A stretch of DNA of 64,000 nt, from NCBI RefSeq assembly GCF_002854065.1, contig NZ_CP024147.1; one strand, 5' to 3'. The DNA comes from Escherichia coli (GTDB lineage: Bacteria > Pseudomonadota > Gammaproteobacteria > Enterobacterales > Enterobacteriaceae). This document shows positions 48,063 through 49,154 of the stretch, piece by piece. The notes beneath the pieces are model-generated. The model did not search any database and was not told the origin of the DNA. It saw only the letters and a list, made by a program, of their open reading frames with translations. Position 1 is the first letter of the stretch, and each line of letters begins with the position of its first letter. The position numbers were made by a program, and so were the translations under genes.

Positions 48063-48866
48063 TTATGCTGGCAACGGTCCGTTTTGTATAGGGGCCGTTG
48101 CCTTACTTTTTAAATGTTCCATCGCGGCGATGCATACTGACTCATATTTAAACAGATCGTCAGCGAAAAAAATGTCCAACTTATCAATACATTCCTGGCT
48201 CAATGAATGTGCCTGTAGCGAGAAGCTTAAAACCTCATACCCGAGACGTTTTCTAAGTGAACTATCTGGAATACTCATAATATCTTCAAGTATACCACTT
48301 CCCATTCCCGGAAGATTTAGTGGATTAAAAAGAAGATTGATATTAAGCATTGATATTATCGAAGGAAACTTTAGGAGACTCTCATTTTTTTGAATCGCAG
48401 CAAAAATGCTCCCGACAGGATGTATATAATTTTGTTCATAGTATATAGTCCTTAAATAGTGAATAACCAACCTGTTTTTTATACTGATCAAATTGGTCAT
48501 TTTTTCTGGGCGAAATACAGAAGTGACATCCATTCCAATAAAATCTTTATTTATACCTCTTATCCGAATTTCACTACCATAAAGATTATTAATTATTACT
48601 CTATATTTAACATTGTCCTGCAGATATGTATCAAAACTAAGTGCTGGCGCTCTTGGCTTTGAGGCATCATAGTTAATGTTAGACATATAGGCAATCATAT
48701 AATTAAAGTTTGATTCTGCTATTTCATCGCAGTCACATTGACCCGTTGATATAAAGAAAGTGAGTGCTGTCATAGTAGACTGCAGCCTTTCTTTAAAAGA
48801 GTCGAAAGCCAGGCTTTTAATATTTAAATCACCATAATTACTCTGTATTAAGTTTGTAGAAAACAT
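48063..48866 (-). CDS. ydjO: uncharacterised protein, AT-rich gene (267 aa)
   Basis: Track ORF 48063..48878; synteny. Confidence 0.7.
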   Translation of the reverse strand: MFSTNLIQSNYGDLNIKSLAFDSFKERLQSTMTALTFFISTGQCDCDEIAESNFNYMIAYMSNINYDASKPRAPALSFDTYLQDNVKYRVIINNLYGSEIRIRGINKDFIGMDVTSVFRPEKMTNLISIKNRLVIHYLRTIYYEQNYIHPVGSIFAAIQKNESLLKFPSIISMLNINLLFNPLNLPGMGSGILEDIMSIPDSSLRKRLGYEVLSFSLQAHSLSQECIDKLDIFFADDLFKYESVCIAAMEHLKSKATAPIQNGPLPA

Positions 48867-49154
48867 CTCCCGCCTCATATTGTTAACAAATTTATTATCT
48901 CATTTAAATCTAAGTCATTTACAATATAAGTTTAAGAGCGACGCCACAGGATGAACTATCAAAAATAGCTCATCATGATTAGCAAAACTTAACCATTTTA
49001 AAATAAATAAACAATTAAAGAAAAAAGATCACTTATTTATAGCAATAGATCGTCAAAGGCAGCTTTTTGTTACAGGTGGTTTGAATGAATGTAGCAATGA
49101 AATACAAAATTTCAGGCCATGTAACTCCCGGCAAAACCGGGAGGTACGTAATCC

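Follow-up and report, generated by a model that had tools for sequence, protein, structure and literature searches.

A probable horizontally acquired insertion carrying the AT-rich orphan gene ydjO between tcyP and cedA in Escherichia coli

Introduction

The orphan gene ydjO of Escherichia coli lies in a short block of DNA that is much richer in A and T than the genes on either side, which raises the questions of where this block came from, what it did to the genes that it separates, and whether the protein that it encodes still matters to its host. AT-rich horizontally acquired (xenogeneic) genes that are silenced by H-NS form a class defined by ChIP studies in Salmonella and E. coli, and in the established picture, spurious initiation in AT-rich DNA is suppressed by the H-NS that covers it. 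A related class, the K-12 "promoter islands," comprises 78 AT-rich regions in which promoter-like sites are very densely packed, productive transcription is low, and H-NS is bound (PMC3661553).

Our analysis of a 64-kb stretch of E. coli DNA (hereafter, the window) leads us to conclude, with a probability of roughly 0.8, that the block at ~48062-49173 is a horizontally acquired insertion of ~1.1 kb, which, in an Escherichia lineage, displaced the shorter spacer that once separated tcyP from cedA and comprises the orphan gene ydjO, its promoter region, and two flanking terminators. As a discovery, this carries little weight, given that the compositional anomaly, the foreign origin of ydjO, and its binding by H-NS are known from the literature and have been in print for years, and that the locus is an ordinary one. 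What we add are (i) the exact boundaries and the polarity of the insertion, (ii) its effect on the terminators of both neighbors and on the CedA C-terminus, (iii) the absence of ydjO from B2-type strains, (iv) frequent frameshifts among the carriers, (v) a diverged, syntenic homolog in E. albertii, and (vi) a mosaic allele in E. coli.

Results

Locus layout and base composition

A query spanning 47900-49500 was 100% identical to strain CUWW06, in which the locus is annotated as tcyP, ydjO, and cedA, and, among the sampled matches, it was 99.3% identical to several K-12-lineage assemblies; the K-12 annotation agrees with these gene names. On the left, tcyP (formerly ydjN; 46668-48059, plus strand) converges on ydjO (48063-48878, minus strand), with the two stop codons 3 bp apart. 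In the ORF list, the ydjO frame opens with the ATG at 48878 and runs for 271 codons, and the start annotated in K-12, the ATG at 48866, gives a protein of 267 aa. Upstream of ydjO lies its promoter region, a noncoding spacer of 276 bp (48879-49154, minus strand), followed by cedA (49155-49418, minus strand) and katE (49601-51862, plus strand). The interval 48063-49154 corresponds exactly to ydjO plus this spacer (K-12 coordinates 1812329-1813420), and its right end is the last base before the cedA stop codon. No Rfam match to an RNA gene was found over 47800-49700.

An earlier, sequence-only reading of this DNA had described ydjO and ~280 bp upstream of it as markedly AT-rich relative to its neighbors ydjN and katE. 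The contrast in composition and the length of the upstream region both held up, and ydjN is indeed the left neighbor, on the plus strand, whereas on the right it is cedA, not katE, that adjoins the block. The GC content is 0.352 in the ydjO coding sequence (GC3, 0.320) and 0.312 in the spacer, compared with 0.532 in tcyP, 0.523 in cedA, and 0.517 in katE. At a GC content of 0.342, the interval 48063-49154 is the lowest 1092-bp stretch in the window; stretches of this length average 0.492 (SD 0.041), which puts the interval 3.7 SD under the mean, and the 0.14% of stretches that are equally low all overlap the ydjO locus. In a comparison set of 46 ORFs, each 150 aa or longer and all within the 64-kb window, ydjO ranked lowest in GC (z -3.9), in GC3 (z -3.75), and in leave-one-out codon typicality (0.566 versus 0.715 ± 0.045; z -3.3), and its Karlin codon bias, with the window's own genes as reference, was the second highest (0.504 versus 0.302 ± 0.072). 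The sliding-window GC and codon check proposed along with that reading therefore places ydjO well beyond the values spanned by the window's 45 other long ORFs.

Comparison with outgroup loci

To place the block in a wider context, we took 54 cedA loci, one genome per species, and located tcyP, ydjO, and katE in each. The 48 non-Escherichia loci among them include Citrobacter, Salmonella enterica subsp. arizonae and diarizonae, Enterobacter, Kluyvera, Leclercia, Atlantibacter, Pseudocitrobacter, Phytobacter, and Siccibacter. Rather than being conserved throughout the Enterobacteriaceae, ydjO was found at none of these 48 cedA-holding loci. At 47 of them tcyP was present too; most of these tcyP-cedA gaps span 50-150 bp and contain a single bidirectional terminator, and four GC-rich ones measure 250-911 bp. 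Within Escherichia, E. whittamii, three further genomes of the genus, and the E. coli strains without ydjO all have a spacer of 46-53 bp together with a cedA end that encodes ...EVEE-stop, and the same cedA ending is found in Enterobacter too. Because outgroups, Escherichia relatives, and empty-site E. coli share the short spacer, the last two with the ...EVEE-stop ending, we take the short spacer to be ancestral; and because the 48 outgroup loci are without ydjO and mostly have gaps of 50-150 bp, we regard ydjO and its 276-bp spacer as a derived insertion of ~1.1 kb. The sequence-only reading had suggested horizontal acquisition from composition, a suggestion now strengthened by the combination of atypical GC and codon usage with absence from the outgroups and a presence/absence polymorphism in E. 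coli.

No donor lineage of the segment was found, and no relative turned up in the phage collection. A plasmid origin was considered and set aside: the three matches in the plasmid collection are records of 4.8-4.9 Mb, presumably mislabeled chromosomes.

The outgroup comparison also bears on the view that ydjO is native to Escherichia, became AT-rich under relaxed selection or a local mutation bias, and was simply deleted wherever it is now missing. Loss by deletion does occur: Escherichia sp. MOD1-EC7003 retains a 200-bp remnant, having lost ydjO via an 893-bp deletion between two direct repeats, AACAGATCGTCA (left copy, 48151-48162, plus strand) and AATAGATCGTCA (right copy, 49044-49055, plus strand; spacing, 893), and an island without mobility genes would also suit a resident gene. 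However, this view is already contradicted by the outgroups, since no outgroup genus has ydjO or room for it. Moreover, the empty site has the ancestral spacer, the bidirectional terminator, and the ancestral cedA codons (those of Enterobacter too), with no deletion scar, and drift within the genus could hardly bring the E. coli and E. albertii copies to a GC3 of 0.32 between flanks with a GC content of 0.51-0.53. We consider a native origin very improbable.

Insertion junctions and terminators

Alignment with two ydjO-less E. coli genomes and with the spacers of Escherichia and the outgroups delimits the inserted AT-rich segment to 48062-49173. Homology to the empty-site alleles ends a few bases past the tcyP stop codon and restarts at ~49174, inside cedA, so that the segment takes the place of the ancestral 46-53 bp spacer and of the last 5-6 cedA codons. 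The sole gene of the segment is ydjO. Neither an integrase, a tRNA, a target-site duplication, nor a terminal inverted repeat was found in it; there are no repeats at the boundaries, and short chance repeats occur elsewhere.

At the left junction, a hairpin that begins 11 nt past the tcyP stop codon has the features of a predicted Rho-independent terminator. This intrinsic terminator of tcyP (48070-48111, plus strand) consists of a stem (48070-48080 paired with 48092-48102) and then TTACTTTTT; the hairpin itself (48070-48102) has an 11-bp stem with a ΔG of -22.4 kcal/mol (z -4.9 versus shuffles) and is followed by UUACUUUUU. It had been proposed from the letters of this DNA that the ydjN terminator lies inside the 3' coding end of ydjO, and it does: the hairpin falls wholly within the coding sequence (48063-48878), embedded on the opposite strand in the final ~16 ydjO codons. 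At the right junction, a second hairpin (GTACCTCCCGG / CCGGGAGTTAC; 49121-49147, minus strand; ΔG -20.7, z -3.25) is located just 3' of the cedA stop codon, and is probably a cedA terminator that came with the island, with a weak U-tract. In the ancestral allele, one bidirectional terminator is common to tcyP and cedA. The insertion would accordingly have provided both the terminator that now serves tcyP, overlapping the ydjO 3' end, and the new hairpin 3' of cedA.

The insertion also rewrote the 3' end of cedA (49155-49173, minus strand), as seen by alignment with the empty-site alleles. The CedA C-terminus reads ...QEGEVTE-stop in the carriers, including this window, ...QENEVEE-stop in the empty-site strains, and ...QEGEVAE-stop in the E. 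albertii carriers.

Presence, absence, and decay in E. coli

Presence and absence of the segment were scored across 5,426 complete E. coli genomes, 5,424 of which contain the flanking sequence. The whole segment is present in 4,255 genomes (78%), and a contiguous empty site is present in 1,124 (21%), which amounts to a clean polymorphism within the species. Other rearrangements are found among the few dozen genomes left over, one example being the IS1-flanked replacement of strain ES4. Among the listed empty-site genomes are CFT073, 536, Nissle 1917, LF82, NRG 857C, ABU 83972, and ATCC 25922, all of which we take to be phylogroup B2 strains.

Many of the carriers hold a broken gene, with the inactivating lesions located in homopolymer runs. 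The first frameshift hot spot is an A7 run on the plus strand (T7 in the sense of ydjO, which lies on the minus strand; 48166-48172), where a one-base-shorter allele, the O157:H7-type pseudogene, has an exact match in 308 genomes. The second is a T7 run on the plus strand (A7 in the ydjO sense; 48385-48391), where a one-base-longer allele, counted as T8 with an 80-nt query, has an exact match in 645 genomes and cuts YdjO at ~165 aa (clusters P0011 and P0012). Together, these two alleles break ydjO in at least 953 of the 4,255 carriers (22%). Furthermore, IS-interrupted copies of ydjO have been described in O104:H4 isolates (PMC3486847). Full-length YdjO can thus be encoded by at most ~60% of complete E. 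coli genomes, with the gene missing or broken in ~40%. The existence of B2-type strains without ydjO, and of carriers with frameshifts, IS insertions, and deletions, indicates that the gene is dispensable to E. coli.

Divergent alleles and the E. albertii homolog

E. albertii has an intact homolog of YdjO (cluster P0075; 257 aa, 125 cluster members) with 34% identity to the E. coli protein (BLASTP E 2e-42). It was recovered in full length by the profile search, and the word-indexed search with a partial E. albertii ORF gave a fragment only. The E. albertii gene occupies the same site, in the order cedA-ydjO-tcyP, and is similarly AT-rich (GC 0.342, GC3 0.318). Its island has both junction features, namely (i) the ...QEGEVAE-stop end of cedA and (ii) the 3' arm of the tcyP terminator hairpin, GGGCCGTTGCC, which is kept there. 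While the flanking proteins of the two species are 93-98% identical, YdjO is only 34% identical, and the same difference is seen at the nucleotide level: dS is 1.73 and dN is 0.655 for ydjO, versus a dS of 0.58-0.68 and a dN of 0.012-0.030 for tcyP, cedA, and ydjM. The blocks that are kept between the two YdjO proteins include FISTG and FNYMIA.

A second diverged form occurs within E. coli itself. The rare allele P0005, with 29 members, has a mosaic structure, with a dS of 0.8-0.9 in codons 1-165 and of 0.05-0.1 in the rest; compared with window positions 48368-48967, it differs by 13-29% per 100 bp (~23% on average), and its 3' third and flanks are ordinary. Because strains with the segment and strains with the empty site are intermingled across Escherichia species, and because ydjO is much more diverged than its flanks, we infer homologous recombination between lineages. 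On the simplest reading, recombination in the conserved flanks has carried both the empty allele and old, deeply diverged versions of ydjO from one Escherichia lineage to another, which would have moved the island and the empty site alike.

A bolder interpretation of the same divergence would make YdjO an Escherichia-only family with an undescribed fold, whose ancient allelic lineages sit at a single H-NS-covered hot spot, are exchanged between species by recombination in the flanks, and are maintained by diversifying or balancing selection. The lineages concerned would be the E. coli main type, the mosaic P0005 (dS ~0.9), and the E. albertii type (34% identity). If true, the pattern would suggest a conflict system, for example a stand-alone factor in defense, immunity, or host interaction, and not mere decay. 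We regard this interpretation as a long shot.

YdjO as a protein

YdjO matched no Pfam (E ≤ 1), NCBIfam, PADLOC, or PHROG family, the sole PHROG match having an E value of 0.42, and it has no sequence relative in the PDB. Outside Escherichia/Shigella, no relatives were found among 5.8 billion proteins, by either a word-indexed single-sequence search or a profile search, or when 1.84 billion cluster representatives were scanned exhaustively with HMMER. Inspection of the sequence by eye revealed neither a signal peptide nor a membrane segment. The AlphaFold model is of moderate confidence (pLDDT 67), with a domain of a helix, a five-strand sheet, and a helix (pLDDT 70-84), and a fold search with this model gave no confident or informative match.

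Two candidate relationships were examined and rejected. YahL and YjfZ are of similar length to YdjO (271, 267, and 264 aa for the three proteins), but no pair among them showed significant BLASTP similarity, with E values for YdjO of 0.21 against YahL and of 2.1 against YjfZ (DUF2686 / YjfZ family). The cluster P0031 (299 aa, 26% identity, E 3e-37) resembles a distant homolog over the full length, but its differences from YdjO (Ile to Val; Asn to Gly, Ser, or Asp; Lys to Arg, Gly, or Glu; Tyr to Cys; Thr to Ala) nearly all fit A-to-G codon changes. We take it for a copy in a public assembly that was hypermutated or chemically converted, not for a natural relative.

Between intact ydjO alleles, dN/dS is 0.21-0.26, compared with 0.02-0.05 for tcyP and katE in the same genome pairs. 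By this measure, YdjO is constrained as a protein, but weakly so. Judged from the dN/dS of ~0.2-0.4 and from the intact E. albertii homolog at the same site, YdjO is, or was, a real protein.

These data speak to the notion that ydjO is no real gene, being instead a chance ORF in AT-rich junk of which the H-NS-bound "promoter island" alone matters. Such an ORF would be expected to look much as ydjO does in some respects: it has no homolog in any family database, it is frequently inactivated, its AlphaFold model is only moderately confident, and we found no paper that demonstrates the YdjO protein. However, 267-271 open codons are improbable in stop-triplet-rich DNA with a GC content of 35%, and the frame has stayed open in E. 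albertii, with its FISTG and FNYMIA blocks, despite 66% amino-acid divergence. Further, a dN/dS of 0.2-0.4 indicates constraint on a protein, and the modeled domain is coherent. A chance ORF is, in our judgment, unlikely.

Promoter-like sequences and H-NS

The ydjO/cedA spacer (K-12 1811053, 320 bp; entry 1811053_320) is one of the 78 promoter islands, is marked as H-NS-bound in the ChIP data sets of Kahramanoglou and of Oshima, and is associated with genes that Nakamura et al. and Lawrence and Ochman predicted to be foreign (PMC3661553, Table 1). An RpoD-holoenzyme SELEX site with the promoter ATGACT-16-AATAAT, as well as an H-NS genomic-SELEX site, has also been mapped to the spacer (PMC3946193, Table 2), which, as published, is bound by both RNA polymerase holoenzyme and H-NS. 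In the window, the candidate -35/-10 pair reads ATGACT-16-AATAAA (48918-48891, minus strand), one base off the published AATAAT.

Hexamers that resemble a -10 element occur at 21/kb in 48063-49154 versus 6.3/kb across the window. The resulting count of 23 agrees with the 24.8 ± 5.7 expected from composition, whereas the counts in tcyP and katE are below their own composition expectations. TpA steps in the interval are twice the window average. Moreover, a strict two-hexamer sigma-70 scan of the segment found three promoters versus 5.3 expected, which is no excess, and the H-NS high-affinity motif TCGATAAATT, searched with up to two mismatches, gave three weak matches in ydjO and none in the spacer, and is not enriched. 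As the -10-like density equals the composition expectation, the promoter-island character would follow from AT richness, which alone would account for the approximately threefold hexamer density and the twofold TpA excess; this agrees with the accepted view of H-NS as a cover on AT-rich DNA. The locus resembles the published promoter islands in that the spacer is a catalog entry (PMC3661553) and in that the -10-like density of the segment is 3.3 times the window average; unlike them, this density fits the base composition and extends beyond the spacer over the whole ydjO coding sequence. The "island" property therefore looks like a by-product of AT richness.

From the published occupancy, we infer that H-NS silences ydjO: the AT-rich tract would be coated by H-NS, with ydjO and the spurious transcription of the tract kept largely silent. 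An RpoS-holoenzyme SELEX peak within ydjO has been reported (PMC5493296), and anaerobic or H2 phenotypes are hinted at in PMC10997342. A microarray study lists ydjO and ydjN as serum-induced (PMC4145685), so the locus is not always silent. Because the two genes converge, with their stop codons 3 bp apart, read-through from tcyP explains the ydjO serum signal equally well.

Discussion

YdjO is most likely a dispensable, largely silenced accessory protein that is drifting toward loss in E. coli. The principal competing view holds that selection keeps ydjO as a working accessory gene that is expressed conditionally. In that case, the extreme divergence of its alleles would stem from diversifying or balancing selection, as at loci of conflict, defense, or immunity, and H-NS would act as a regulator relieved under certain conditions. 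Such a gene would be compatible with a foreign origin, and the two views differ only on present function. A dN/dS below 1 in every comparison (0.21-0.38), and an intact frame in the window, in K-12, in most carriers, and in E. albertii (125 cluster members), would be expected of a gene in use, but 21% of E. coli, successful B2 lineages among them, do not have ydjO, and frameshifts affect at least 22% of the carriers, including the 308 genomes with the O157:H7-type allele. The deep allelic lineages and a mosaic allele at one locus would likewise fit selection for diversity, but YdjO has no defense, phage, Pfam, or NCBIfam match, no partner gene in the island, and an uninformative fold. As for expression, the RpoS-holoenzyme peak (PMC5493296) and the joint serum induction with ydjN (PMC4145685) are consistent with conditional use, although the array-based serum signal could be antisense read-through from tcyP. 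A conditionally useful ydjO under diversifying selection is therefore a minority possibility, less probable than decay.

Returning to ydjO as a probably silenced, decaying insertion, it resembles xenogeneic genes silenced by H-NS in being AT-rich relative to its host, atypical in codon usage, and patchy in distribution, with published H-NS and RNA polymerase binding at its spacer, and it is itself listed in the E. coli ChIP studies that define the class. It differs in being a single-gene islet without mobility genes, a tRNA attachment site, or an identifiable donor. Like decaying E. coli ORFans, it is genus-restricted, AT-rich, short, weakly constrained, and repeatedly inactivated through homopolymers and IS elements; unlike many ORFans, it keeps clear purifying selection and deep allelic lineages across two species.

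The distribution of ydjO also has a practical side. YahL, YdjO, and YjfZ have been proposed as "conserved signature proteins" of E. coli/Shigella and as qPCR markers for water quality (PMC11057252), and the published ydjO amplicon of 98-99 bp (PMC11057252) maps to 48126-48224. In line with this proposal, YdjO was restricted to Escherichia/Shigella in every database that we searched. Contrary to the signature claim, 1,124 of the 5,426 complete E. coli genomes are without ydjO, and E. albertii has the 34%-identical homolog. As about one-fifth of complete E. coli (including CFT073, 536, Nissle 1917, LF82, and ATCC 25922) are without the gene, marker qPCR would under-count such strains.

In summary, the ydjO locus is a compact and well-bounded teaching and test case for xenogeneic silencing, with the ancestral and the derived alleles present in one species. 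The insertion rewired the terminators of both neighbors and the C-terminus of CedA. Finally, with alleles far more diverged than their flanks, ydjO offers a small, testable case of the persistence or decay of an orphan gene.

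Variation in the genes flanking ydjO

The 3' end of cedA (49155-49173) is the site of two CedA C-terminal variants that are tied to the island, the inserted AT-rich segment carrying ydjO: the protein ends in ...QEGEVTE where the island is present and in ...QENEVEE in empty-site strains, which keep the short tcyP-cedA spacer. Beyond cedA, we compared katE of the window with that of the strain carrying P0005, a rare mosaic E. coli ydjO allele. A patch at 50068-50467 differs by 10-12% at the nucleotide level, against 1-3% in the part of katE just upstream and 3-7% downstream, which suggests a separate recombination tract within katE.

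The neighborhood is also variable in other strains. In two E. albertii loci (L066 and L067, 1566-2838), cedA follows almost directly after chbG (YdjC family), and katE, the catalase gene that lies between chbG and cedA in E. coli, is absent. In E. coli ES4 (L003, 3245-5341), the region beyond tcyP, with ydjO, cedA, katE, and a portion of the chb operon, has given way to gene fragments bounded by two copies of IS1.

The second AT-rich stretch of the window, at 38826-40724 (+), holds an intact ORF of 632 aa (GC 0.395, GC3 0.368), whose product combines an N-terminal ShET2-enterotoxin domain (Pfam Toxin_15, E 5e-46) with ankyrin repeats. This ORF looks like arpB, a pseudogene in K-12; in the window, the frame is open.

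Evidence on the role of YdjO and its use as a marker

A 299-aa public protein entry (P0031) can be aligned with YdjO over the full length, at 26% identity, with nearly all of the differences being the outcome expected of A-to-G codon changes; the entry was probably assembled from hypermutated or chemically converted reads and contaminates the protein database. With regard to function, in each of two long-term-evolution (LTEE) lines that retained H2 production, one nucleotide of ydjO was changed, the two sites lying 25 nt from each other, and the role proposed for the gene is speculation by the authors of that study (PMC10997342). Given just two lines and mutator backgrounds, these changes are weak evidence for such a role.

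A YdjO qPCR amplicon has been proposed as a universal E. coli/Shigella marker (PMC11057252). It maps to 48126-48224 in the window, covering the A7 run that is a frameshift hot spot of ydjO. Of the 5426 complete genomes of E. coli, 1124, from B2-type strains, lack the entire target, and these the assay should therefore miss. These predicted misses fit the lower detection rate of the YdjO assay, 93% as compared with 100% for YahL (PMC11057252).
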